64,000 nucleotides of DNA from an uncultured Acidimicrobiia bacterium (GTDB taxonomy: Bacteria; Acidobacteriota; Terriglobia; Versatilivoradales; Versatilivoraceae): assembly GCA_963810905.1 (NCBI GenBank), contig CAWEPG010000003.1, forward strand, positions 19,315 through 83,314, written 5' to 3'. The notes under the pieces were generated by a model that saw only the letters and a program-made list of their open reading frames with translations, ran no database searches and was not told the DNA's origin. Positions 30,646 through 44,675 of this stretch are shown one piece after another. A program made the translations under genes and the position numbers. How positions within the stretch are numbered: the first letter of the stretch is position 1; each line of letters opens with the position of its first letter.

Positions 30646-32616
30646 ATGAAAAGGAAAACTGCAGTAACCGCGGGTTTGATGTTCATCCTCGCCGGGTTTG
30701 GTGGGTTGATTTCCTGTAAGACAGCTCAAACACCGGAAGAGGCGCAGCGGTCCGGCCAAGCTGGCCAGGCCACGACCGAGCAGCCGCCGCAGCGCAACCC
30801 CGATCGCAACGCCTACTTCGGTGAGGAACACATCCACACCAGCTGGTCGGTGGACGCCTGGGTGATGGGCAACCGCATCACCGGACCTGACGACGCCCTC
30901 AAGTATGCTCAGGGCCAAACCATCAAGCATCCCATGGGCTACGACATCAAGATCGACACGCCCATGGACTTCATGGGTGTGACCGACCACTCCGAGTACG
31001 TCGGCGTCACCAAGGAAGCGAACACCCCGGGTTCGGCGATCAGCAAGATGCCGGAAGCGCAGCCCTTGATCCTCAAGGACCCCAACAACCCGGCGGAGCA
31101 GCAGAAGGTCTTCCTGTATCTCCTCTCTCTCACCAGCCGGCCTCCGATCAAGGCCTTCATGACACCGGAAGTGGCGGGCACCGTCTGGAAGGAAAACGTC
31201 AAGATCGCCGAGGAGAACAATCATCCGGGCAAGTTCACCGCGTTCTGTTCTTACGAGTGGACCTCCATGCCCAACAACCGCAACCTGCATCGCAACATCT
31301 TCTTCCGCGACTGCACCAATGTGCCGGCGATGCCCTTCAGCTCCATGGATTCCAACCATCCCGAGGACCTCTGGAAGTGGATGGACACCCAGCGCAAGGC
31401 CGGCAACGAGTTGTTGGCCATTTCGCATAACGCCAATGTGAGCGACGGCTGGATGTATCCCGTCGACCTCGACAGCTTCGGCAGGCCCATCGATGCGGCC
31501 TGGGCAGCCTCCCGCGACCGCAACGAGCGCCTGGTCGAAATCAAGCAGATCAAGGGGCAGTCCGAGACCCATCCCTTGTTGTCTCCCACCGACGAATTCG
31601 CCAACTACGAGATCTTCAGTGGCCTGCTCGGTCTTCCGCCAGACGTCGGCCGCATTGATCACATTCACGGCAGCTTCGCCCGCCAGGCCTACAAGGACGG
31701 CATAGCCATGCAGGACACCCGCGGCTACAACCCCTACAAGTTCGGCATGGCCGGCGGCTCCGACTCCCACAACACCGGCAGCCCTTACCGTCAGGACAAT
31801 TTCTATGGTGGACACGCCGAGGCGGACGGAACCGTTGAGAGGCGCCTGGCTGGGGTCATGCTGGGAAACACCATCGATGTGCGCCTGGAGAACCCGGGCG
31901 GACTGACCGGCGTGTGGGCCGAGGAAAACACCCGCGCCTCCCTCTGGGACGCCATGTATCGCAAGGAAACCTTCGGCGTCAGCGGCCCGCACATCAAAGT
32001 GCGCTTCTTCGGCGGTTGGGGCTACAACAACGACATCCTGAACGCCAGGGACTGGGTACACCAGTCCTATGCGAACGGCGTCCCCATGGGCGCCGACCTG
32101 CCTCCGATGAAGGGCATGGCTCCGACGTTCGTTGTCTGGGCGGTGAAAGACCCGACATCCGGCAATCTCGACCGCATCCAGATCATCAAGGGCTGGACCA
32201 AGAACGGCCAGAGCTTCGAGAAGATCTTCGACGTGGCCTGGTCCGGCGACCGCAAGGCCAATAAGTGGTCGGGCAGGGTTCCGGCGATCCAGAGCACCGT
32301 GGACCTGGAGAAAGCCACCTACACCAACACCGTCGGTTCGACGGAACTCAAGACAGTCTGGACCGATCCCGAGTTTGATGCCAGCCTGCATGCGTTCTAC
32401 TACGCCCGCGTGCTGGAGATCCCCACGCCGCGCTGGACCCTCATTCAGGCAGTGAAGGCCGGGGTTCCGCCGCCCGACGTGGTGCCGCTCACCGGCCAGG
32501 AGCGCGCCTGGAGTTCGCCCATCTGGTACACCCCGAGCGCTGAGGCGCGCAAGAATGCGCCCGCCGGCATGACGGTGGCCGACCTCAAGACAGAAAGGCG
32601 CAACCGCGCTGGGTGA
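30646..32616 (+). CDS. Secreted DUF3604-like putative metal-dependent hydrolase, intact copy, high GC.
   Basis: A signal peptide, then NAYFGEEHIHTSWSVDAW (HxH metal motif) and the conserved C-terminal YYARVLEIPTPRW...WSSPIWY. The gene is strongly GC3-rich, and the antisense strand stays open (684-aa shadow ORF), as expected for high GC. Confidence 0.5.
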   Translation: MKRKTAVTAGLMFILAGFGGLISCKTAQTPEEAQRSGQAGQATTEQPPQRNPDRNAYFGEEHIHTSWSVDAWVMGNRITGPDDALKYAQGQTIKHPMGYDIKIDTPMDFMGVTDHSEYVGVTKEANTPGSAISKMPEAQPLILKDPNNPAEQQKVFLYLLSLTSRPPIKAFMTPEVAGTVWKENVKIAEENNHPGKFTAFCSYEWTSMPNNRNLHRNIFFRDCTNVPAMPFSSMDSNHPEDLWKWMDTQRKAGNELLAISHNANVSDGWMYPVDLDSFGRPIDAAWAASRDRNERLVEIKQIKGQSETHPLLSPTDEFANYEIFSGLLGLPPDVGRIDHIHGSFARQAYKDGIAMQDTRGYNPYKFGMAGGSDSHNTGSPYRQDNFYGGHAEADGTVERRLAGVMLGNTIDVRLENPGGLTGVWAEENTRASLWDAMYRKETFGVSGPHIKVRFFGGWGYNNDILNARDWVHQSYANGVPMGADLPPMKGMAPTFVVWAVKDPTSGNLDRIQIIKGWTKNGQSFEKIFDVAWSGDRKANKWSGRVPAIQSTVDLEKATYTNTVGSTELKTVWTDPEFDASLHAFYYARVLEIPTPRWTLIQAVKAGVPPPDVVPLTGQERAWSSPIWYTPSAEARKNAPAGMTVADLKTERRNRAG

Positions 32617-33285: not shown

Positions 33286-33776
33286 CCAGAAGTAAGAAAG
33301 AATCGCTGGGCTGGCCGGCAGCGCTTTAGTTTTGCGATTCTTGCGTGCGATCCGGAAGCACGTTCGCTTGGATGATCGCGTACAAGTTCAACCAAGACGG
33401 CTCTGCTCGATATCAATTCTGCAGGCTGACTCGCCGGGCAAAGACAAGGAATCCAACTAGCTGCCGACTTCTCCGGCGCGTTCAACAGCACCATTCGCAA
33501 TTATTGGCCAAAAGAAGATGCATTGAACGGCAACTACAAGAATCCGCCGATCAAGAAGGTGCAATAAAGGAATGTCTGACGGAGCCTGGCTTAGCCAAGG
33601 AAGACGCCTACCTGACTATTAATCGAGCAGTGTTGGAGGGCATAACTTCCGTGTTCTCTCCTCGCCCGCAGTCGGGGAGAGGGATCGGGGGTGAGGGGCG
33701 CGGTTAGCCCTAGGTGTCCTACTTCCGCACCTATTATAATCAGACTTCTTAAAAAGATTGAATCTAGGAAGGTCCA

Positions 33777-34145
33777 ATGAAAAAGATCCTCATGCTCGCG
33801 GCATTGGCCGAAGCGGGCACGGGAGTGATTTTGCTCGCCTATCCACCAATCGTCGTCCGGCTGCTGTTCGACACAGAACTCGTCGGTGCCAGCGTTATCA
33901 TGAGCCGCCTCGCGGGCATTGCTCTGATCGGATTGGGGGCCGCCTGCTGGCCGGCTAACCCTACAGTGCGGGCGTTTTACGGGATGGTGACCTATAGCTC
34001 GCTCGCCATGCTGTACCTTATTTACATCGGCGTCCGCGGAGAAGTGGTTGGGTTGCTATTGTGGCCGGCAGTTGTGGTCCATGCGATCCTCGTCGTTGTT
34101 CTCTGCCGCGCGCGAATCAAAGAAGAAAAGACGCCGGCGGCATAA
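33777..34145 (+). CDS. Small 4-TM membrane protein, hypothetical.
   Basis: A 122-aa ORF with four hydrophobic helices and a good start context. Confidence 0.4.
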   Translation: MKKILMLAALAEAGTGVILLAYPPIVVRLLFDTELVGASVIMSRLAGIALIGLGAACWPANPTVRAFYGMVTYSSLAMLYLIYIGVRGEVVGLLLWPAVVVHAILVVVLCRARIKEEKTPAA

Positions 34146-34192
34146 GGACTTGAACTGATGATTTGCCGTCTTTGCTTGGCAGCTTTTGAATT

Positions 34193-34385
34193 CCCCTCTC
34201 GGGAGGGGAGAGAGGGCTCGCAGAGCCCTCAGGGGTGGGTTTGAGCTCAGGTTGCATTCAAGACCGACCCACCCCTACCCCCTCCGTCGGAGGGGAATCA
34301 ATAGTCTTCTCCTCAGCCTAAGAGGGGCGGTCGCTAGTGCAACGAGCTGCTGACCTGAGGGAAAGCGGTAGCAAGCTACCGCACT
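34193..34385. repeat. Array of five or more GC-rich perfect hairpins (REP-like or terminator cluster).
   Basis: cccctc-tcgg-gagggg; gagggct-cgcag-agccctc; aggggtgggt-N26-acccacccct; ccctcc-gtc-ggaggg; gcggtagc-aa-gctaccgc. Confidence 0.5.
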
Positions 34386-34488
34386 CCAAAATTGATAAGT
34401 TCTCACGTATGGTGGTGAACGGGGAGTCAAGACTTCGCTCAGGATCTGGTTGAGTTTACATTCTTCATAGTGACCAGTTGCTTGCTGC

Positions 34489-34538
34489 GCCCTCAACTCT
34501 AAGTATACTTTTTCGTCAGTTTTCCCCTGACGGAACCG
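34489..34538 (+). promoter_or_regulatory. Conserved 5' leader or promoter, copy 2 (upstream of the decayed paralog).
   Basis: ctaagtatactttttcgtcagttttcccctgacggaaccgttcccattta aligns to 30549-30598. The RBS-proximal aaccgaaRgagag is also shared. Confidence 0.5.
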
Positions 34539-34584
34539 TTCCCATTTATACGTGAACACAATTTTCCGTCGACTAAGAACCGAA

Positions 34585-36416
34585 AGAGAGAACATATGAA
34601 AGCGAAAGCATGCCTAGTGGTGGCATTAGTCGCTGATACTTGCGATCACGCTGGGTATTAGTGCGGTGTTCTGCGCAGGAGAAAAATCCAGAGCGTAATG
34701 CCTATTTCGGCAGATCTGCATCTGCACAGCGGATATTCCATGGATGCCTTCGCCTTCGGCACCAGGACCACGCCTGAGGACTCATACAAATATGCGATGG
34801 GTGAAACCGTGAAATACATGGGAAAGCCTCAAAAGCGAATCGCGCCGCTCGACTTCCTTGCCGTAACCGACCACGGCGAGTATCTGGGAGTAGTGCGCGA
34901 CACGATTGATCCCAATGGCCCATTCGCGAAGTCCGAGTGGTACACCATCATGACCAACCCCAATCCCAAGGTATCGGGCGAAGCGTTTCAGAAAATCGCC
35001 CGACTTTGACCGTCGTCAACAAGCCTCTGCCGGAGTTCAACGACCCCAAAACTGCTGCGCTCCGCATGGGAGAAATACGCGGCGATCTCTGACAAGTACT
35101 ACAAGCCCGGGAAGTTCACGACATTCGTGGGATTTGAGTGGACGTCGGCCCCACAGTTCCAGAACCTGCATCGCTGCGTGATCTTCGCCAATAAAGGGCC
35201 GGAGATGCCGTTCTCGGCGTTCGACTCGCAAGATCCGGAAAAGCTTTGGGAATATCTGGAAGCACCAACGCAAGCAGGGAATCGACGTCATTGCAGTGCC
35301 CCACAACGCCAACGTCAGCAACGGCCTGATGTTCAGCACCGCGCGACATGTCGGGCAAGCCGATTACCCGCGATTACGCCGAGCGCCGCATGGCAAACGA
35401 ACCACTCGCCGAGATTATTCAGGCCAAGGGCCAGAGCGACACGAGTCCGGCGCTTTCACCCACTGACGAATTCGCCAACTTCGAGATGTTCCCCTATCTG
35501 ATTGGCACCAGATGTCAAGGCAAAGTCCGCAACCGGGAGCTATCTGCGTCAGGCTTACGGCGTAGGACAGGAGCAGCAGGCCAAGCTGGGCGTCAATCCG
35601 TTCAAGTACGGCATCGAGGCCGGGACCGACTTCCACTCCGGTATTTCGTCCACTGAGCCGAGCAACTATCCGGGCTCGCACGGCAACCAGGACAATGATC
35701 CTAAAACCGTGATCACCTCTACTACTTCGGTCAGCGGGGAACCCCTGACCGCTCTCAGTTCAGCCGGACTCACCGGAGTCTGGGCCGAGGAGAACACCCG
35801 CGAATCCATCTTTGCGGCGTTAAAGCGGAAGGAGACATTCGGCACGTCCGGAACCCGAATCAAGGTTCGCATGTTTGCCGGTTGGAATTATCCCAAGGAC
35901 ATGACCAAACAGGCAGATTGGGTAAAAGCTGCATACAATGGCGGCGTGTCCATGGGTGGCGACCTTACAGCAACGTCAGGATCAGCTGTTCCAACGTTCG
36001 TCGTTCACGCCATCAAAGACCCCAACAGCGGCAATCTCGATCGCGTTCAGATCATCAAGATTTCGACCAGGGATGGTAAGAGCAAGGAAACCGTTTACGA
36101 CGTCGTTTGGAGCGGGGACCGCAAGGCCGATCCAAAAACCGGCAAGGTCCCAGCCGTTGGCAATACGGTTGACGTGAAGACCTCCACGTACACGAACTCA
36201 ATCGGCGCAGCCGAATTGGCCGTTATGTGGAGGGATCCATCGTTCGATCCGAAAGCTTATGCGACATACTATGCGCGGGTCCTGGAAATACCAACTCCAC
36301 GGTGGTCTACCTATTGGGCCGCCGAGCTGAACCTGCCTCCCAACCCAAACGTCGCGGCCACTGTGCAGCAGCGTGCCTGGACGTCGCCCATTTGGTACGC
36401 TCCGGCAAAGCCATAG
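34585..36416 (+). pseudogene. Decayed paralog of the DUF3604-like gene (about seven frameshifts).
   Basis: Five ORF pieces (34698..35009, 35127..35501, 35348..35656, 35502..36416 and the N-terminal MKAKA piece) match copy 1 collinearly. Examples are NAYFG(D)LHLHSGYSMD, FVGFEWTSAPQFQNLHR, LSPTDEFANFEMF and LTGVWAEENTRE...YYARVLEIPTPRW...WTSPIWYAP. The frameshift density is about eight times the window background. Confidence 0.7.
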
Positions 36417-36430
36417 GAGTTGTTTATTGA

Positions 36431-37441
36431 GTGAGTGAAATTTCTGTAGGCATCGTTCCAGATAAGCATGATTCCGACTCGGAATCTAGGCCGAAGAGTT
36501 CCGTCGTTCCTTTCCTTATGCGCTGGCTGCGCGAGCCGCTCCTGCACTTTCTACTCCTCGGGGTCGCGCTGTTCGCTGTTTACGCTACTTGCATCGCGGC
36601 CGCGGCGGAGTCGAATCGTCCCGGCAGATTATTCTGAGCCTCGATGAACTTCGGCAGATGGACATGTACTTCGAGTCGCAATGGCATCGCCAGCCGACTC
36701 CGGCTGAGTTCCAAGCGATGGTCGAGGACAAGGTGCGCGAGGAGGTCCTTTACCGCGAAGGTATTGCGATGGGCCTCGACAAAGACGACACCATCGTCAA
36801 GCGCCGCATGGCGCAGAAGATGCAGTTCCTCGCCGAAGACGTGGCCGCCGCTCACGAACCTTCCACGGCGGAGCTCAAGGCCTGGTTCGACAAAAACAAA
36901 GACAAGTTTGCCCTGCCGGGCCGCTACAGCTTCCGCCATCTTTACTTCTCACCCGACAAGCGCGGCAAGAATGCGCAGGAAGATGCCGCCAAGGTACTGG
37001 CCAAAATCGCCAGCCAGCCGGAAGACTCGAAACTGGCAGCATCCCTCGCCGATCCATTCATGTTCCAGAATTATTACGGTGACCGCACTCCCGAGGCGAT
37101 CGCCAAGGAGTTCGGTCCGCCGTTCGCGATGACCCTGCGAGAAGCTGAAGCCCGGTTCATGGCAGGGGCCGGTTGAGTCCGGCTACGGCTGGCATTGTGT
37201 ATTCGTCGATACCGTGATCCCAGGCCGCATTCCCGCTTTTGAAGAAGTCGAGCCGGATGTAAAGACCGCCTGGCTGGGGGAACAGAAAGCTCAGGCCTGG
37301 AAGAAAGCCTATGATGCGATGCGCGCCAAATACATCGTGCTTCTACCTGCGCCTCCCGCGAAGGAATCGGCGCAGCCCACCTCTCCTCCACCTCCCCTCA
37401 AGAAGCAGGTTCCCGCCCCATCCGGTGAGGGACCGCTGTGA
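36431..37441 (+). CDS. Membrane-anchored PpiC-type (parvulin) peptidyl-prolyl isomerase / SurA-PpiD-like chaperone, with two frame breaks.
   Basis: An N-terminal TM anchor (LLHFLLLGVALFAVYATCIAAAA), a chaperone-like middle part, and then in the next frame SGYGWHCVFVDTVIPGRIPAFEEVEPDVKTAW (parvulin S-x-YGWH-V signature). Confidence 0.5.
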
Positions 37442-37758
37442 GCGGCGAACGCCGGAGCAACGTCAGATGCGGATCCGGGATGCGAGATGCGGCAAATGGG
37501 TTGCGATGAAAAAAAATGGAAGAACAGAGGACGAGATTCGAGAGTTGAGGTCCGAGATACGGGATGCCAGATGACGTAAATGCAAGAAGCATGAAATCGA
37601 GGAGCAGGAGCTCGAATCGCGTATTCGAGCCTTTCATTCTGTATCCCGAATCCGTATCTTGCATTTCGCATCTCGCATCCTTTGCGCATCTGGCCAGCAT
37701 CTAGCGGTCTCGCTATCTCTATCCCATACCTCCTGTCTCTAATCATTCCTTTGCTATT
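37441..37758. repeat. Heptanucleotide-repeat block A (GAGATRC-type units, then the complementary GYATCTC-type units), an imperfect long palindrome.
   Basis: ggatgcgagatgcg at 37476-37490 pairs with cgcatctcgcatcc at 37667-37680, and aaatgcaag pairs with cttgcattt. The stretch is a run of 7-nt units. It probably also encodes the displaced signal peptide of the downstream HupE gene. Confidence 0.6.
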
Positions 37759-38712
37759 GTGTCCCCTGCCTTTGCCCACGAAGCACGCCCTGCTTACCTG
37801 GAGATCAAGGAAACCGAGCCCGATCAGTTCAGCGTCCTCTGGCGCACACCGGTTCTTGCAGGTATGCGTCTGCCCATCCTTCTGAAATTGCCTGACGACT
37901 CGAAGAACCTGAAGGAGCCCACCGTCCAGGAATTGGCGGATTCCCTCGTGGAGCGCCGATGGGTGAATGCCGGGCCGAATGGGCTGGCCGGAAAGCGGAT
38001 CGAATTCGTTGGGCTGCAAGCGACAATCACCGATGTCGTGGTCCGCGTTGAGATGCTCGACGGCAGGAAATGGACAACCATCGTTCACCCTTCGCAACCA
38101 TGGGTGGAGCTTGCCGCTTCGCAAACCAGGCTGGGTGTGATGGGCACCTACATCGTGCAGGGTATCCGGCACATCCTCTTCGGCGCCGATCATCTGCTCT
38201 TCGTGCTTGGTCTGCTGCTGATCGTGAAAGATCGCTGGATGCTACTGAAGACGGTCACGGCCTTCACCGTGGCGCACAGCATCACCTTGGCCATAGCGAC
38301 CCTGGGCTATGCCGAGGCGCCGGTAGTTCCTTTGAATGCCGCAATCGCTCTGAGCATTCTTTTCCTGGGACCGGAGATTGTGCGTTCCTGGCGCGGGGAG
38401 ACCAGCTTCACGATCCGCCATCCTTGGGTGGTGGCTTTTGCATTTGGGCTGCTGCATGGCTTCGGGTTTGCCAGCGCGCTCACGAGTGCCGGTTTGCCGC
38501 GAACGGAGTTGCCGCTCGCGCTGGTGAGCTTCAATGTTGGTGTAGAGCTCGGGCAACTTGGTTTCATCCTGCTGGTCCTGGCGCTGGAACGTTCTTTCTC
38601 TATACTCGAAGTCCGTTGGCCACGGTGGGCTCAGGCACTTCCTGGATACGCCGTGGGTGGGCTCGGCGCATTTTGGACTATTCAAAGAGTGGCGGTGATG
38701 ATTACAGGATGA
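37682..38712 (+). CDS. HupE/UreJ_2-family metal (Ni/Co-type) transporter with an N-terminal periplasmic domain. The signal peptide appears to lie in a different frame (frameshift near 37750).
   Basis: The mature region starts AFA|HEARP (a typical HupE signal-peptidase site). The core is GIRHILFGADHLLFVLGLLL and the protein has 6 TM. An upstream ATG at 37682 gives a hydrophobic leader in the +1 frame. Confidence 0.55.
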
Positions 38713-38832
38713 TGCGATGCGAGATCCGAGATGCGGGGATGCGGGATGCGAGAGAATGCGAGTTGTGAAAAGCGAAATCTCGACATCCTGAATCCCGGAT
38801 CACGTACCCCGTATCAGGCTTCTTATTAAATT
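38713..38832. repeat. Heptanucleotide-repeat block B.
   Basis: Forward units gatgc gagatcc gagatgc ggggatgc gggatgc gagagaatgc, then the reverse-type units gacatcc tgaatccc ggatcac gtacccc gtatcag. Confidence 0.55.
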
Positions 38833-39246
38833 ATGAGCTACAGAACACTTGAGATTTGGCAACTGGCTCGCGACTTATCGATTGAGATTCATCACATGAC
38901 GTTGGAGTCGTTGCCGAGGCTGGAAATGTATGAAGAAGCGTCTCAAATTCGCCGCTCAGCTAAATCCATCAGATCCAATATTGTCGAAGGATATGGGAGG
39001 CGAAGGTACAAGTTGGAGTTCGTGCGCTTTTTGACCTATGCACACGCCTCATGCGATGAGACAATTGATCACCTTGAAACCCTGCACGAAACTGGATCTC
39101 TCGCGGAAGACGCTTTGTATGAGCGGCTTCATCAAAAGCTGAACCATTTAGGTGGAAAACTCAACCACTTCATTCAAGGTGTGGAGTTGCAGCACCGTTC
39201 GGTTCGGGAGGATAGCGCCGAGTACAAGCGAGATGAAGAAGAGTGA
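38833..39246 (+). CDS. Four-helix-bundle protein (the '23S rRNA intervening-sequence protein' family, the same family as DGR Avd proteins).
   Basis: A 137-aa ORF ([21 protein letters not shown]...[17 protein letters not shown]...[17 protein letters not shown]), the typical size and motif pattern for the TIGR02436/PF05635 family. Confidence 0.7.
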
Positions 39247-39477
39247 CGGATATGATATGGGTTAATAAGCGATGGGAGATACGAGATACGAGATGGAAGA
39301 TGCGAAATACCGTATAGAAAATGTAAGTGGCCGTGCGCGAGTACCTGAAATCTCGTATCCCGCATCCCGCATCTCGTATCCCGCATCTCGTTTCTCGTAT
39401 CCCGCATCTCGTTTCTCGCATCTCGTTCTCGTATCCCGCATCTCGTTTCTCGTATCAAGTATCTTGCCTCCATCATT
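39247..39477. repeat. Heptanucleotide-repeat block C: five forward GARATRC units (39276-39310), then about 17 tandem ATCYCGY units (39350-39468).
   Basis: atctcgt atcccgc atcccgc atctcgt atcccgc atctcgt ttctcgt atcccgc atctcgt ttctcgc atctcgt ... Every frame of the unit is used, so the spurious ORFs here have a 7-aa period (EMRDTRN / SRISYPA). Confidence 0.7.
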
Positions 39478-40041
39478 GTGATTCTTTTCGCGTTCTGGCC
39501 CGTCTCTGTATTTGCGCATACGCAAAAAGGCGAGGCCGCCGGCTTTCTGACCGGCTTTCGTCATCCCATCTCGGGGATGGACCATGTGCTGGCAATGGTC
39601 GCCGTGGGCCTTTGGGGCGCACAGCTCGGAGCTCCCGCAGTGTGGCTACTGCCGGTTGCGTTTCCCTTGGTGATGGCGATGGGAGGAATGCTCGCGCTCA
39701 TGGGCGTACCATTACCCGGCATTGAATACGGGATTGCCGCATCCGCTATCTTACTCGGCTCCGCTGTGATGTTTGAGATCCGCCCGCCTCTGGTAGTGGC
39801 TGCCCTAATGGTTGGATTCTTCGCCATTTTCCATGGGCACGCCCACGGCACCGAACTCCCGCCGGGCCAAAGTGCCCTGCTCTACAGCATGGGCTTCGTG
39901 ATTGCGACGGGTTGTTTGCACGCGGTGGGAATCAGTATCGGAGCGGTCCATCGATGGGTGTGGGGACAAAGATTGCTGCGGCTTGCCGGTGCCCTAGTCG
40001 CAGTGGGTGGTGTCTTCTTCATGTGGAGAGCGTTCGCATGA
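39478..40041 (+). CDS. hupE: HupE/UreJ family Ni/Co transporter (canonical).
   Basis: A GTG start, signal ...SVFA|H, then [21 protein letters not shown] and HGHAHG, the classic HupE motifs. 187 aa. Confidence 0.8.
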
Positions 40042-40673
40042 AACGATCTCGTGTTCCTGTTTTCTGCGCAGTCTTGTTGGCTTTCGCCATGTGTCCGCTT
40101 ACGGCGGAAGCTCATCTGAATTCCACGGGCATGGGCCCACTCTACGATGGCCTTATGCACTTCTTGATGAGCCCGGAGGACTTCGTGCCAGCGCTGGCGT
40201 TAGCGCTCTTGGTGGGTCTGCGTGGGACGGCGTACGGACGGCGGGCACTGTTTACGCTTCCAACGGCGTGGCTATTCGGCGGTCTTATCGGAACAGGCGC
40301 AGCCGCTAGAATTGGCAGTCCCGTGGTATCAGCAGTATGGTTTATCCTCCTCGGTGTGCTGCTCGCCTCGGACGCAAGCTTTCGTTGGGGAGTCGCCTCG
40401 AACGCCAAGCTTTCGTTGCGGGCGATCACCGCATTGGCTGTCTTGCTTGGGGTCTACAATGGCTACCTCAACGGCACCGGAATGGGACAGTTCGACATTG
40501 CCGCCATTGCTTTACTTGGATTAGCTTTCACAGTGTTTGCTCTCGTGGCGTTGGCTGCAGCGTTTGTGGTGCGATTGCGAGCGGAGTGGGGACGAATCGC
40601 CATGCGGGTCGTGGGTAGTTGGATTGCAGCAAGCGGCTTGCTCATGCTCGGTTGGGCGATTCGCGGAGGTTGA
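40039..40673 (+). CDS. HupE/UreJ_2-like membrane protein (third paralog), translationally coupled to the preceding gene (ATGA overlap).
   Basis: [25 protein letters not shown]|H signal, GLMHFLMSPEDFVPALALALLVGL and six TM segments. Confidence 0.5.
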
Positions 40674-41131: not shown

Positions 41132-41301
41132 ACCAGCAAGCCATGTCCTAGTAGGGTTCTTGGAATTCCGTGGATGATTTCCGCTAGCTCCTGACTTGAA
41201 AGTAGAACTGTGTGTCTTGCGCCGGGAGGCATGTGCGATCGGTTGCCAGTGCAAGTCCGGAGAAAGGGTTTGAATATCTCTACTTCGATGGAGGTGTCAC
41301 C

Positions 41302-44300
41302 GTGAAGATGGCCGTGGTTTTTATACTCATGCTAGTTTCCTTGCCTGTGTTTGCCCAGAGTAATTATGCGGAACTGAGCGGCACTGTTCTGGACCCCGGG
41401 CGGGGCGCCATCGTTGGTGCTAGCATCCAGCTAACTTCAGTCTCAACCCTTGCAGAGCGGACCGCGAGCACTAACGTGCACGGGATCTTTCAGATTCCAG
41501 GCTTGCCCCCTGGCGAGTACAAATTACTCGTCAAGGCGCTGGGATTTGCAGAGACCAATCAGTCCTTTCGGCTCGAGGTCGGACAAAGGCTAAGCCTTGA
41601 CCTGACCCTCAAACTGGACTCTGTTGCTAAAGCCATTGAAGTTACCGGGGGCGCAGAACCGATAGCCAAGACAGACGCGAGTGTCGGCGAGGTCATCGAA
41701 CCCACCTCCATTTCAAACCTCCCGCTCAACGGCCGGATGTTGATTGATTTGGTTTTAACAGTTCCGGGGGCCCATGTCAGCCATGGAGCCCAAGCTGGCG
41801 ACATGAGTTCACTCTACTGGCGCCCCGGCCAGCGCTCGGCCGTCAGCATCGGAGGCAACCGCCCCAATGCAAATTATTTTCTTCTTGATGGTACGACCAA
41901 CACTGATCCTACTTTTAACACGCTAAACTTGAGCCCGTCGCCTGATGCGGTGCAAGAGTTCAAAGTCCAGACTGGGAGTTATTCTGCAGAAATGGGTGGG
42001 GCTGGCGGCGGGCAGATCAACATTGTCACAAAATCTGGGACGAATCAATTCCATGGGACTGTTTACGACTTCTTGCGAAACGGGGCGCTCGATGCCCATA
42101 CATTCAACGACATGGGTTCGAAGTTTCTGGTTCAGAACAACTTCGGAGGGGCCCTTGGCGGTCCTATCATCCACAACAAGACATTCTTTTTTATGAGTTA
42201 TGAGGGGTTGAGGCTTTCGAAGGCGGACACCATGATTGATACGGTTCCTACAGAAATGGAGACCATGGGTGATTTCAGCATGAGCGGTGTTACGATCTAC
42301 AACCCGTTCAGTTCTCACCCCAACCCGAACTACGATCCCAAAAAGCCGATTAGTCCTTCTAATCCGCAGATTTTGCGCGACACGTTCCCCGGCAACGTGA
42401 TCCCATCAAACATGATTAATCCTGCAACTGCTCAATTCCTCGCGAAATATGTGCCTCGTCCCAACATGGACATGGGAATGAATGGCTGCGATGGAATGAC
42501 AATGATGGGCCAGCCCACAGTCATAGGGGCGGGCGTTGACTGCAATAACTATACCGACACTCGTAATGAGCATCACCTCACTGACCAAGGCATGATCCGG
42601 ATTGATCAAATGTTCAGCCAAAACGATAACTTGTGGTTCCGTTACTCCCTGAGTGGTGAGAATGGCTTCACGCCCCAAAATCTGCCTGGCTTCGGTGCGA
42701 TCCATGACAATTTTGCCCAACAAGGTAGCATCGGATGGAACCACGTCATGAGCCCAGTGATGGTGAACATGGCGGCAATCAGCATTTCGCGGCTTTCAAT
42801 GCACCGCTCTTCGGAAAATAGCGAAAGCAACGATATCGTCAGTGAGCTGGGGATTAAAGGAATCGGTTACGGGGGGAGGGGGCATATGGTGCACCCTACT
42901 TCAATTTGCAAGGTTATTCCCCAATGGGTGATTCTTATATTGCGACTCCCATGCATGCCTGGGATACGATCCTGGAAGCCCGCGACGTGTTGACTTGGCA
43001 GCGCGGTCGTCACGGGCTCAAATTTGGTGGAAGCTTCCGTTATTTTATATGGCCAATGTGGGGGTTTTTTCAGAATCGCGGATACTATCAGATGACCAAC
43101 GGCTACACGACTCAAACTGCTACTAACGATGGTACCGGCTCAGCATTAGCCAGTTTCCTTCTGGGACTGCCTGCAGTCAAGCAACGCCAGGCTGGCATTC
43201 CCCAGATGCAGCTTCGCCAATGGTATGCCGACGGCTTTGTACAGGATAGTTTCCGGCTGTCGGGGAGCACCACTTTAGAAATGGGGCTGCGCTATGAATA
43301 CATGAGCCCGCTGACCGACATCCGGTATACTAATAGTAATCTCGACTTCCAGGACGGGAAGCCGGATGCGTTTATAGGCGGACAACTCGGCTACCCCACA
43401 GGCCTGAGATATTCCAACAAGCTGAACTTCGCTCCGCGCTTTGGCGTCTCCCACTATCTACCAAGCCACGGAACCGTACTTCACGCAGCCTTCGGCATCT
43501 TTTACACACCGGTCGATATGAACACATGGTGCAACCAGCGCCACAACGTTCCCTATGTGTTCCCCGAAACCCAACAAGCCGACAACTTCACCCCGCCTGC
43601 CACGCTGGTTGCTTCCGGGTTTAACTTCGGCCAGCCGGTCCTAGGTTTGACAACAGTGAGTTTTGCCTCGATGGATCTGCACGGTCCGCCACAATACATC
43701 GAGCAATGGAGTGCTTCAGTCGAGAAAAGCCTTGGTAATCTGACAACACTTGAGATCGGATACCTGGGGAGCCATGGACTCCACCTTCAACGAGCGCACC
43801 TCGTTAACAATGCTCTACCCGGTCCTGGCCCCATTGGTCCCCGACGGCCGTTCAGAACAGTAAGCTTCTTGCCTGGAACGGTGCTCCCTACCGACATTAC
43901 AGTTCTGAGTACTACGTTTCCTGTGAGTACCATCAATATTCTGGAAAACTCAGCCCGGAGTTGGTACAACGCCGGTTATGTCAACGTTCGCCGCCGTTAT
44001 GCGGATGGTTTTACATTTTTGGCTAATTACACCTGGTCCAAGAACTTGACGGACGCCCCGGACTTTCGTTCCCCTATGTTTGAATCCTCAATTCCCCAGA
44101 ATAACAATAACTTGATTGGCGAAAAAGGACTGGGTTGCGATGTGCGTCATCGATTCGCTCTCAGCGCCGTCTATAATATTCCTCAGATTAATGGCTCTCA
44201 GGCAGTCCGAATACTAAGCCGCAATTGGCAAGTAGCGACCATCTATCAAGTTCAAACCGGATTCCCGTTCACTATTTCGGTATTTGGTGACACGGCAAAC

Positions 44301-44675
44301 TCCGGTACAGTGCTTGGAGAGAATCCCATTCGCGCCAACTACACGGGACAACCTGTGTTCGGACCGAACACCGGCAATGCTGACGCGTGGTTTAACCCAT
44401 CGGCGTTCGCGACACCCGCGGCCTTCACGTTTGGAAATTTAGGGCGGAACACGGTCTACGGGCCGGGCATGCAAACGCTTGATATGGCGGTGGCTCGCGA
44501 ATTTGGAACCAGTGAACGATTTCGCTTCCAAATTCGGGCTGAATTTTTCAATACGCTGAACCAAGTGAATCTCGGCACACCCAACCGCTTCGTGAATACA
44601 CCGCAGTTCGGTACGATCACTGAAGCCGCCACTCCGGGTCGGCAGATTCAGCTCAGTGCACGGTTTTCATTTTAG
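41302..44675 (+). CDS. TonB-dependent outer-membrane receptor with an N-terminal carboxypeptidase-regulatory-like domain, frame-broken near 42873-42885 (G-runs).
   Basis: A signal peptide, then AQSNYAELSGTVLDPGRGAIVGASIQL... (CarbopepD_reg), a plug region and a long barrel. The terminal residue is F. ORFs 41212..42993 and 42906..44675 overlap at the break. Confidence 0.8.

Follow-up and report, generated by a model that had tools for sequence, protein, structure and literature searches.

We propose that the four-helix-bundle (4HB) gene and the inverted heptamer arrays described here form one unit, probably a copy outside rRNA of the ORF-bearing type of 23S rRNA intervening sequence (IVS), and that this cassette was inserted into a hupE operon. 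The heptamer units, GAGATRC in one arm and ATCYCGY in the other, fill the three junctions of the HupE cluster and occur nowhere else in the window, by which we mean the whole 64 kb stretch of DNA that was analyzed. Combinations of a 4HB gene with inverted arrays recur in many phyla and in a genuine rRNA IVS.

The hupE locus

The coordinates of all features are given in Table 1. The first-pass annotation identified HupE and four-helix-bundle genes, and both identities hold in the Pfam and TIGR02436 comparisons (4HB gene, 23S_rRNA_IVP E 1e-26 and TIGR02436 E 7e-28). The HupE genes fit HupE/UreJ metal transporters in having a HupE_UreJ domain and a signal peptide followed by an N-terminal His, with predicted cleavage between AFA and HE and between VFA and HT, and the nearest solved structure to the 4HB protein is XCC0516 (PDB 2GSC). 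The likely present start of HupE1 is the TTG at 37682, within the reverse array of block A, and the mature protein begins at the His codon at 37777. The frame of the ancestral HupE1 GTG ends after 23 codons, inside block A, and that of the ancestral HupE2 ATG meets a stop after 19 codons, in block B. It had been suggested that block A encodes the HupE1 signal peptide in a shifted frame, and this is real, as a single T is missing after 37762 relative to the orthologues in loci L001 and L002. The window carries several frameshifts, and hence the expression state of HupE1 is uncertain here. HupE2 has a GTG start directly 3' of the cassette, with ATG or GTG at the same place in L002 and L156.

Table 1. 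Features of the hupE locus, in positions of the window.
Feature	Position	Strand	Basis or remark
GTGA overlap	37438..37441	+	PPIase-like gene stop and ancestral HupE1 start codon
Block A forward (G-rich) heptamer arrays	37465..37572	+	sub-arrays 37465-37491 and 37531-37572
Block A loop	37573..37625	+	small internal hairpin 37610 to 37630, reaching into reverse arrays
Block A reverse (C-rich) heptamer arrays	37626..37740	+	complementary to forward arrays
HupE1	37682..38712	+	HupE_UreJ_2 Pfam match (37759-38712, E 1.4e-43); frames; comparison with L001, L002
Predicted long-range stem	38705..39483	+	38705-38770 pairs with about 39400-39480, around 4HB ORF
ATGA overlap	38709..38712	+	HupE1 stop and ancestral HupE2 start
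Block B forward array (cassette left arm)	38713..38764	+	Tandem Repeats Finder; folding
Block B degenerate reverse units	38775..38826	+	local hairpin with 38713-38764 (z -3.9)
4HB gene, 137 aa	38833..39246	+	PF05635 / TIGR02436; dN/dS 0.12-0.26
Block C forward array	39264..39310	+	Tandem Repeats Finder; folding
Block C loop	39311..39349	+	conserved in L001, L002
Block C reverse array, ~15 units (cassette right arm)	39350..39477	+	repeat finding; folding; translation
HupE2	39478..40041	+	HupE_UreJ Pfam, E 8e-56
HupE3	40038..40673	+	weak HupE_UreJ match, E 2e-6; ATGA overlap with HupE2 intact; without repeats

Tandem Repeats Finder placed the only period-7 arrays of the whole window at 37465-37491, 37656-37679, 38716-38753, 39276-39294, and 39350-39463. 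The pattern ATCYCGYATCYCGY, with at most 2 mismatches, occurs 34 times, compared with 5.3 ± 2.5 times in shuffled sequence, and 30 of the 34 occurrences fall in the three blocks, which confirms the earlier description of heptamer arrays filling the HupE junctions. The units are mostly GAGATGC and GAGATAC and are imperfect (73-86% matches in Tandem Repeats Finder), and each array has at most two G3 runs. The reverse array of block C is open in all three sense frames, and it is the sole array that was translated here in all frames. The consensus units of other families contain no stop trinucleotide, and thus reading frames can run through the arrays. An Rfam search of 37200-39700 matched no family, and a scan of the blocks for terminators and promoters found nothing above shuffles. 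The arrays did not originate as an artefact of assembly, since the same junctions carry them in the independent assemblies of L001, L002, L004, L005, and L156. As to the hairpin loops, the possibility that they are remnants of the 4HB gene was considered and rejected, as an HMM of close 4HB homologues matched only the gene itself in the window; on loci L082-L161 the same HMM found nothing except L156, and a guess that the junction in L149 holds a 4HB N-terminal remnant was unsupported by Pfam.

All three blocks fold better than shuffles, as the first-pass annotation expected of them (z -2.0 for block A, the value given in Table 1 for block B, and -2.85 for block C). Its example of a hairpin stands in substance, ggatgcgagatgcg being the exact reverse complement of cgcatctcgcatcc at 37667-37680, with the start corrected from 37476 to 37478. 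The stretch 38700-39490 has a minimum free energy of -279.9 kcal/mol (z -6.55), and in its predicted fold the forward array of block B pairs with the distal reverse array of block C, enclosing the ORF. Across 74 loci the sense and antisense arms fold equally well (37/74; p 0.66), and with no strand asymmetry the data fit structure at the RNA level and at the DNA level alike.

Recurrence of the design across phyla

A G-rich period-7 array upstream and a complementary array downstream accompany 54 of 75 relatives of the window 4HB gene, which come from many phyla; the upstream array, sought within 250 nt of the gene, is present in 61/75 loci and the C-rich downstream array in 59/75. Arrays occur at a density of 3.71 per kb near 4HB genes versus 0.178 per kb elsewhere, and for 54 of 74 loci the energy of the arm-to-arm duplex is better than that of shuffles (z < -2). 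The arms also show covariation: the position that varies within the unit agrees between them in 51 of 59 loci (Fisher p 5.6e-9, for loci that are not phylogenetically independent), and they stay complementary when the unit changes, as in GATGCTG with CAGCATC and GATGCCA with TGGCATC.

The cassettes occupy unrelated host sites, including nrdB/nrdA, purA/uppS, two Rnf-Nqr subunit genes that we take to be nqrD/nqrE, an ABC ATPase gene and that of its permease, and a DUF1553 and a DUF1501 gene, and both neighbors are co-directional with the cassette in 43 of 57 loci. In the sequence preceding the 4HB start codon (ATG), a search for shared leader or promoter motifs gave only weak purine enrichment at -10 to -7; the motif cttattaaatt was restricted to close relatives and a single Nostoc copy. 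A scan of viral contigs found no relatives, and in the literature we came across no publication connecting 4HB genes with inverted heptamer arrays. One 4HB protein (P0106) is on 15 contigs, which had been considered as different contexts; this was rejected, as all are one and the same Pirellulaceae locus.

Insertion into the hupE operon

Orthologous hupE loci, 65 in all with HupE1 74-89% identical, allow empty sites to be compared with occupied ones. In 64 of them HupE1 directly abuts HupE2 by overlapping ATGA stop and start codons and the 4HB gene is absent, and 61 of these 64 are free of period-7 arrays near the two junctions. The first junction of the empty sites reads ...ccgctGTGAcc..., running straight into the signal peptide, and the second reads ...gcgcgATGAac..., followed by the HupE2 signal peptide. 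In the window, blocks A and B sit just past the retained GTGA and ATGA overlaps, in the signal-peptide coding sequence of the downstream gene. Where the 4HB gene is present at the hupE locus (L001-L005 and L156), the repeats are also present. Judged by this comparison of sequences, the cassette is an insertion into the hupE operon. No transposase, integrase, or reverse transcriptase (RT) gene is nearby, no transposase domain was found at the locus, and the junctions show no evident target-site duplication, the last being a weak test given the divergence of the empty sites.

The 4HB protein is under purifying selection, as its dN/dS values (Table 1) show, and the gene has a history that in part differs from that of its neighbors. 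Between the window and L156 or L005 its dS is 0.36 or 0.41, compared with 1.28-1.88 for HupE1, HupE2, and HupE3, which makes it approximately 3.5 times less diverged at synonymous sites than the flanking hupE genes. By this measure the cassette appears younger than the flanking genes in some lineages, and the lower dS suggests horizontal movement into the same site; it could also come partly from constraint on synonymous sites. Cassette-bearing loci are not monophyletic in the HupE1 tree, one metagenome-assembled genome (MAG) has two cassettes with unrelated flanks, and in L002 hairpin modules are copied between junctions, with the block C loop found in block A and, inverted, in block B. Compared with L001 and L002, the dS of the window 4HB gene is about 0.7 of that of its flanks, and in these three the cassette is stably inherited with the locus and is thus not visibly active now. 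A separate case, the identical 4HB proteins of L059 (labelled Verrucomicrobiota) and L061 (labelled Kapaibacterium), was considered as a horizontal transfer and rejected, as their flanks are 93.6% identical, which indicates one lineage or a binning error.

The first-pass annotation had read the locus as an IVS-type selfish element, and had named beforehand three outcomes that would speak against this: repeats that are unique to the locus and lack co-varying arms, a 4HB gene at the same position in relatives without repeats, and the lack of other copies of either element. None of the three was found, and the reading is supported.

In the sequence of events that we propose, the cassette would have entered the hupE operon of this lineage and a solo repeat hairpin (block A) would have entered one junction upstream, each landing just after the stop/start overlap of translationally coupled genes, in the n-region of the downstream signal peptide. 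The cassette would be co-transcribed with the operon, and its arms are predicted to pair into an extended stem of double-stranded RNA with the ORF shut inside. We infer that RNase III would cut this stem, by analogy with rRNA, and that the insertion would therefore be tolerated. HupE1 and HupE2 would now be translated from new starts at or in the 3' arm, TTG 37682 and GTG 39478. Spread of the cassette between genomes and loci might involve recombination between arrays, or the 4HB protein as a repeat-binding factor. A broader proposal, which we make tentatively and consider to be the less probable outcome, is that a single mobile-element family spans phyla, with 4HB genes and their inverted heptamer arrays as its autonomous members, that 23S IVS, cyanobacterial STRR, Xanthomonas GGGAATC repeats, and solo hairpins might be insertions or gene-less derivatives of it, and that the 4HB protein may be a trans-acting factor that recognizes GAT-core heptamers and promotes spread or maintenance.

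Alternative explanations

The arrays might instead be host regulatory RNA for the Ni/Co transporters, serving as processing sites, mRNA stabilizers, or translational couplers, with the 4HB gene a locus-specific accessory. They lie exactly at operon junctions, the predicted stem places the HupE1 stop beside the HupE2 start, and L001 and L002 retain the blocks at each of the three junctions even though array length changes rapidly. This explanation is nevertheless unlikely given the 61 array-free loci among the 64 that lack the 4HB gene, the same design around 4HB genes in unrelated operons, in many phyla, and in rRNA, and the presence of different hairpin elements at the same hupE junctions in other lineages; by sequence, these junctions resemble a site that readily accepts insertions more than they do a dedicated regulator. 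An STRR-like regulatory role had been offered in the first-pass annotation, and it was correct to class the arrays with STRR-type heptamers as one kind of sequence, but a dedicated Ni/Co role is improbable because the arrays are not specific to hupE. We assign a smaller probability to the arrays being contingency (phase-variation) switches, in which gain or loss of a 7-nt unit shifts the frame between a start codon in the array and the body of HupE. Seven is not divisible by three, the number of units differs among the window, L001, and L002 and also between Coxiella strains (PMC4990558), and ORFs run from an ATG in GAGATGC units through the arrays into HupE1 in L001 (ATG 8838) and L002 (ATG 2716). 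Imperfect units disfavor slippage, however, the window, L002, and L156 share a conserved HupE2 start 3' of the array, which makes the frame of the array irrelevant to HupE2 there, and rRNA, in which a reading frame has no meaning, carries the same arrays.

A reading of the arrays as GGGNATC-type simple sequence repeats that form G-quadruplexes and act via G4 or i-motif structures, with the 4HB gene as a bystander, is very improbable. The arrays share with such repeats the period of 7, the G-rich/C-rich strand asymmetry, and a placement 0-50 nt past stop codons and ahead of start codons (PMC4692102), but the predominant window units are GAGATGC and GAGATAC, and no array has four neighboring G3 tracts, compared with the G4 criterion of at least four consecutive ones (Rehm 2015). 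Arm complementarity is also retained through unit changes, which G4 formation does not need, and a GGGAATC array of the Xanthomonas data set itself abuts a 4HB gene, that of XCC0516. A decayed diversity-generating retroelement (DGR), with the 4HB gene as an orphaned Avd, can be given hardly any credence. PF05635 proteins are homologous to Avd (PMC10053308), but no RT domain is encoded within about 10 kb, either here or in the orthologous locus, there is no template/variable (TR/VR) repeat pair, and the RT-less architecture recurs in about 75 loci. The first-pass annotation had also concluded that this is not a DGR, and the long direct repeats in 28000-50000 are limited to the arrays and two DUF3604 paralogues.

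Relation to known elements

As in the ORF-bearing 23S IVS of Leptospira, Coxiella (S23p), and Azospirillum (L173), a PF05635 ORF in the window lies inside a long inverted-repeat stem with tandem heptamers immediately beside it. The link to 23S IVS is direct, since in the 23S (LSU) rRNA gene of Azospirillum lipoferum 4B (L173) a 4HB ORF is located in the helix-45 loop between inverted heptamer arrays, with GAGGACR and its complement YGTCCTC as arms and a closing fold of z -9.7 for this bona fide IVS, and in Coxiella tandem GACAGAT heptamers are found right before the S23p ORF, and RNase III cleaves at the first of them (PMC4990558). The window has the S23p-type protein and, in the predicted fold, the closing stem of an IVS, and it differs in its site, which is between protein-coding genes, in signal-peptide coding sequence, and not in helix 25 or 45 of 23S rRNA. 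The arms of the window cassette are longer, with extra local hairpins and the unit GAGATRC, and its ORF is under purifying selection, whereas Coxiella S23p is reported to be decaying.

The arrays also resemble heptameric intergenic repeats, which include GGGAATC in Xanthomonas and GGGGAYT in Nostoc (PMC4692102) and TAACTGA in Beggiatoaceae (PMC4679880). Shared traits are units of seven nucleotides, a copy number that varies, the common occurrence of convergent inverted pairs, and location within 50 nt of stop and start codons. A GAT core is common to most of the units (GATGCGG, GATTCGG). The published repeats are treated in these papers as stand-alone SSRs or G4 motifs, unconnected to 4HB genes. 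The window arrays, in contrast, are arms of a gene cassette and have units without G3 tracts. Cyanobacterial STRR heptamers, CCCCAGT and others, were reportedly described by Mazel et al. in 1990, and the reverse complement of STRR1 yields GACTGGG. The window has tandem 7-nt units of variable copy number at intergenic junctions, as STRR do, but with GAGATRC and ATCYCGY in place of the consensus units CCCCAGT, TTGGTCA, and CAACAGT.

Avd belongs to the same protein superfamily as the window 4HB protein and forms a pentamer, and the 2GSC structure contains five chains of the XCC0516 sequence. Unlike a DGR, the window lacks an RT, a TR/VR pair, and a target gene, and heptamer arrays are not among the described features of DGR. 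With REP elements and RAYT genes (REPINs) the locus shares a gene flanked by an inverted short repeat that is also found alone as junction hairpins, which is the relationship of an autonomous to a non-autonomous element. RAYT is a Y1 HUH transposase and we know of no catalytic domain in the 4HB protein; 4HB cassettes, unlike RAYT, are often multi-copy. Rickettsia palindromic elements, which according to Ogata et al. in 2000 are said to insert in frame into protein-coding genes and to be translated, resemble the insertions in HupE1 of L156 and L005 and in signal-peptide n-regions, being palindromic and within coding sequence. They differ from the window in being single units of 100-150 nt rather than heptamer arrays, and to our knowledge have no associated gene.

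Implications

We know of no function for the 23S IVS ORF in the thirty years that it has been studied. It was still called functionally uncharacterized in 2024 (PMC11270868), and catalogues of heptamer repeats, STRR and GGGAATC among them, give no origin. The locus and roughly 75 related loci join these two subjects, as inverted heptamer arms around a conserved 4HB gene are one recurring design that occurs within rRNA, at gene junctions of essential operons, and even in coding regions themselves. The two long-standing questions become testable, with cultured carriers in Xanthomonas campestris (XCC0516, structure solved), Nostoc punctiforme, and Azospirillum lipoferum. The arrays can provide new initiation codons or add residues to the beginning of signal peptides, and when free of stops they mislead gene callers into long false N-terminal extensions.

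The cassette in the hupE operon

Period-7 tandem arrays occur at three places only in the 64-kb window, which are the junctions of the HupE cluster that the first-pass annotation had reported to be filled with heptamers (blocks A-C), and the genes around them have the identities given there. A two-unit pattern with up to two mismatches is found 34 times in the window, compared to 5.3 ± 2.5 expected, and 30 of these occurrences lie inside the three blocks. The pair of arms offered as an example by that annotation is an exact reverse complement, although the first arm starts at 37478. As anticipated, every block forms a hairpin whose fold beats its own shuffles, and when 38700-39490 is folded as a single RNA (z -6.55) the forward (G-rich) array of block B is predicted to pair with the distal part of the reverse (C-rich) array of block C, enclosing the four-helix-bundle (4HB) ORF and bringing the HupE1 stop beside the HupE2 start.

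Features of the window and of comparison loci from other assemblies (L-numbers, in their own coordinates)
Feature	Position	Description
Block A	37465-37572; 37626-37740	forward units; reverse units
Block B	38713-38764; 38775-38826	forward units; degenerate reverse units
Block C	39264-39310; 39350-39477	forward units; reverse units (~15)
HupE1	37759-38712	HupE_UreJ_2
4HB protein	38833-39246	137 aa, PF05635/TIGR02436
HupE2	39478-40041	HupE_UreJ
HupE3	40038-40673	weak HupE_UreJ match
DUF3604 gene	35502-36416	split; one ORF keeps only profile positions 296-591
PPIase-like gene	36589-37176 + 37214-37441	split or frameshifted vs intact orthologues
HupE1 signal peptide	37762/37763	frameshifted vs intact orthologues
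OMP_b-brl_4 barrel	41212-42993 + 42906-44675	split or frameshifted vs intact orthologues
L112		heptamer hairpin, AGTTTCG + CGAAACT units
L115	364-513; 1500-1660	second heptamer hairpin family
L128	1800-1900; 2905-3170	second heptamer hairpin family
L149	1570-1715; 2709-2960	second heptamer hairpin family
L103	1245-1300	REP-like GC-rich palindromes CCCACCCAAGC...GCTTGGGTGGG
L085	1085-1230	REP-like GC-rich palindromes CCCACCCAAGC...GCTTGGGTGGG
L156	1503-1625	window-type heptamer hairpin in HupE1

A metagenome scan with HupE1 as the query gave 80 orthologous loci (74-89% identical), 65 of which have enough downstream sequence to be judged, and in 64 of the 65 HupE1 leads straight into HupE2 without a 4HB gene. 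No period-7 array is near the two junctions in 61 of these 64 loci, and the other three (L111, L112, and L150) have other heptamer families there. At such empty sites the genes are translationally coupled, with the PPIase-like stop and HupE1 start overlapping as GTGA and the HupE1 stop and HupE2 start as ATGA. The window retains both overlaps (GTGA at 37438-37441 and ATGA at 38709-38712), with the repeats starting directly after ATGA at junction B and ~24 nt after GTGA at junction A, and hence block A and the whole B-4HB-C cassette lie inside sequence encoding the signal-peptide n-region of the downstream gene. The reading frames from the old start codons terminate inside the repeats. For HupE2, a GTG (39478) directly follows the 3' end of the cassette, at a place where the array-bearing loci L002 and L156 have ATG or GTG, and HupE1 could use TTG 37682, within the reverse array, as its start. 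The comparison of orthologous hupE loci that had been proposed earlier shows that the 4HB cassette in the operon is an insertion.

The signal peptide of HupE1, noted in the first pass to be in a shifted frame, is missing one T after 37762 in comparison with L001 and L002. Three other genes of the window show the same kind of split, so an assembly indel in HupE1 is as probable as a pseudogene, and the four together suggest either a series of pseudogenes or indel errors introduced by long-read assembly. The window has two DUF3604 paralogues, which form direct repeats (30646-32616 and ~33600-36416, ~70% DNA identity), of which the first is intact and the second split.

A recurrent gene-plus-array design

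A scan with the 4HB protein, using one genome per species, yielded 80 loci in MAGs labelled Acidobacteriota, Nitrospirota, Verrucomicrobiota, Kiritimatiellota, Planctomycetota, Bacteroidota, Calditrichia, Armatimonadota, and others. Among the 75 with both flanks available, a G-rich period-7 array lies within 250 nt upstream of the 4HB gene in 61, a C-rich array lies downstream in 59, and both are present in 54. Array density within 250 nt of the gene is 21 times that in the rest of the loci (3.71 vs 0.178 per kb). Pairing between the upstream and downstream flanks exceeds that of shuffled controls: z is under -2 in 54 of 74 loci and under -3 in 38. The heptamer unit consists of a constant GAT[GAT]C core and two variable bases, the first of which is shared by the two arms at 51 of 59 loci (G/G 37, T/T 12, C/C 2; Fisher p 5.6e-9), a match that represents compensatory change, with the caveat that the loci are non-independent.

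The 4HB gene is co-directional with both neighbours in 43 of 57 loci. Away from hupE, the genes beside it are unrelated to metal transport. They include nrdB/nrdA, two Rnf-Nqr subunit genes (which we take to be nqrD/nqrE), purA/uppS, an ABC ATPase and permease, DUF1549/1553 and DUF1501, two B12-radical-SAM genes, and a sugar transferase and O-antigen ligase. Published gene lists also record, without comment, a 4HB gene in Pleurocapsa that separates cmr3 from cmr2 (PMC3936711) and another in Flavobacterium columnare with guanylate kinase and NaMN adenylyltransferase as its neighbours (PMC5524665). The literature that we searched, with incomplete coverage, contains no paper connecting 4HB genes with inverted heptamer arrays, which is absence of evidence only.

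Several loci have features of their own. Three from Psychroflexus (L054, L065, and L069) have the 4HB gene between nrdB and nrdA with strong inverted repeats on either side (duplex z -6 and -14 in L054 and L065); units of the ATAGNAAC type are visible, and Tandem Repeats Finder did not detect these repeats as period-7 arrays. A Planctomycetales MAG (L027; 3712-3977, 5148-5351) has a 38-unit GATGCGG array upstream of the 4HB gene, and close by but separate from it are two other heptamers, CAAATTC and TTGGACA, as an inverted pair. In L010, L011, L013, L023, and L037 the longest ORFs of the downstream genes cross the C-rich array and thereby gain N-terminal extensions, and gene callers are likely to set the start codons of these genes wrongly.

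Relationship to rRNA intervening sequences and known heptamer repeats

A tblastn search of plasmids gave a match on replicon AZO_p2 of Azospirillum lipoferum 4B that falls within an LSU rRNA gene (Rfam RF02541, 2420 bits), in which the 4HB ORF occupies the terminal loop of a hairpin (model positions 1206-1226; helix 45). Next to the ORF lie CAGAGGA CGGATGA CAGAGGA CGGAGGA on the one flank and GTCCTCT GTCTTCT GTCATCC GTCTTCT on the opposite flank, and these are predicted to pair into a continuous closing stem (z -9.7). In the Coxiella intervening sequence (IVS), the S23p ORF is directly preceded by two or three tandem GACAGAT units, which differ in copy number among strains, and the 5' cut by RNase III is at the first repeat (PMC4990558). 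The window cassette thus has the anatomy of an ORF-bearing 23S rRNA IVS but sits in an mRNA. Sense and antisense arms show no difference in stability, and hence it is from the rRNA precedent that we infer a probable action of the cassette at the RNA level.

Similar repeats were described by Rehm et al. (PMC4692102) as GGGAATC arrays in Xanthomonas, where 70-75 convergent pairs are among those in each genome, and as GGGGAYT arrays in Nostoc, located 0-50 nt after stop codons and before starts; they were read as G-quadruplex motifs and 4HB genes were unmentioned. In their own supplementary table, repeat #15 abuts the start of XCC0516, and XCC0516 (2GSC) is the closest solved structure to the 4HB protein of the window. 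Plasmid pNPUN01 of Nostoc punctiforme has a 4HB gene with GGGTGTG units upstream and ACACCCT units downstream. The window units (GAGATGC and GAGATAC), with at most two G3 runs per array, are unable to form a canonical G-quadruplex.

The original observation is confirmed, and the insertion, the cross-phylum design, and the likeness to rRNA IVSs all support the original reading of an IVS-type element in a protein-coding locus. The window element is best classified as a cassette of IVS type that lies outside rRNA, and is one instance of a widespread, apparently unrecognised design.

Selection, movement, and other elements at the hupE junctions

The 4HB ORF evolves under purifying selection, with a dN/dS of 0.12-0.26 among the window, L001, L002, and L156. 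In the HupE1 tree, loci with the cassette appear at three distinct positions amid empty loci. Synonymous divergence of the window from L156/L005 is 1.28-1.88 for HupE1, HupE2, and HupE3 but 0.36-0.41 for the 4HB gene; from L001/L002 it is 0.15-0.31 for all genes. The cassette is hence younger than the divergence of its hosts, and it probably reached the same junction by transfer or conversion in different lineages. Consistent with this, a single Acidobacteriota MAG has two cassettes with nothing but the ORF and a 60-nt leader in common and with unrelated flanks, L002 has further copies of its block C hairpin module at junction A and, in inverted form, at junction B, and array lengths vary freely among close relatives (~300 nt for block A in the window compared to ~90 nt in L001). 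No recombinase, transposase, or RT is encoded nearby and no target duplication is evident.

MAG MFD02979.bin.1.148 (contigs L002 and L003) has two complete hupE clusters, each with a cassette, whose 4HB proteins are 94% and 91% identical to that of the window, which reflects either a duplication or the binning together of two related strains. This MAG is labelled Acidimicrobiia; the CarboxypepD_reg outer-membrane barrel gene of the window looks Acidobacteriota-like.

The junction site seems to be permissive, as other lineages hold other hairpin elements at the same two junctions. In L115, L128, and L149, hairpins whose units are CGAAATC and GATTTCG and whose conserved loop includes GTTCAAAACG...CGTTTTGAAC occupy both junctions without a 4HB gene. 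The palindromes of L103 and L085 are in-frame insertions in the HupE2 signal-peptide n-region, and the L150 array, read in frame, is part of a signal peptide. In L156 and L005 a hairpin of the window's repeat type is inserted in frame within the HupE1 coding sequence and, resembling Rickettsia palindromic elements, adds to a loop between membrane helices 27 codons that read ...KQNDARFGMRDTGYE...ASRISNPAS...; in L005 this HupE1 lies upstream of the locus's own 4HB gene.
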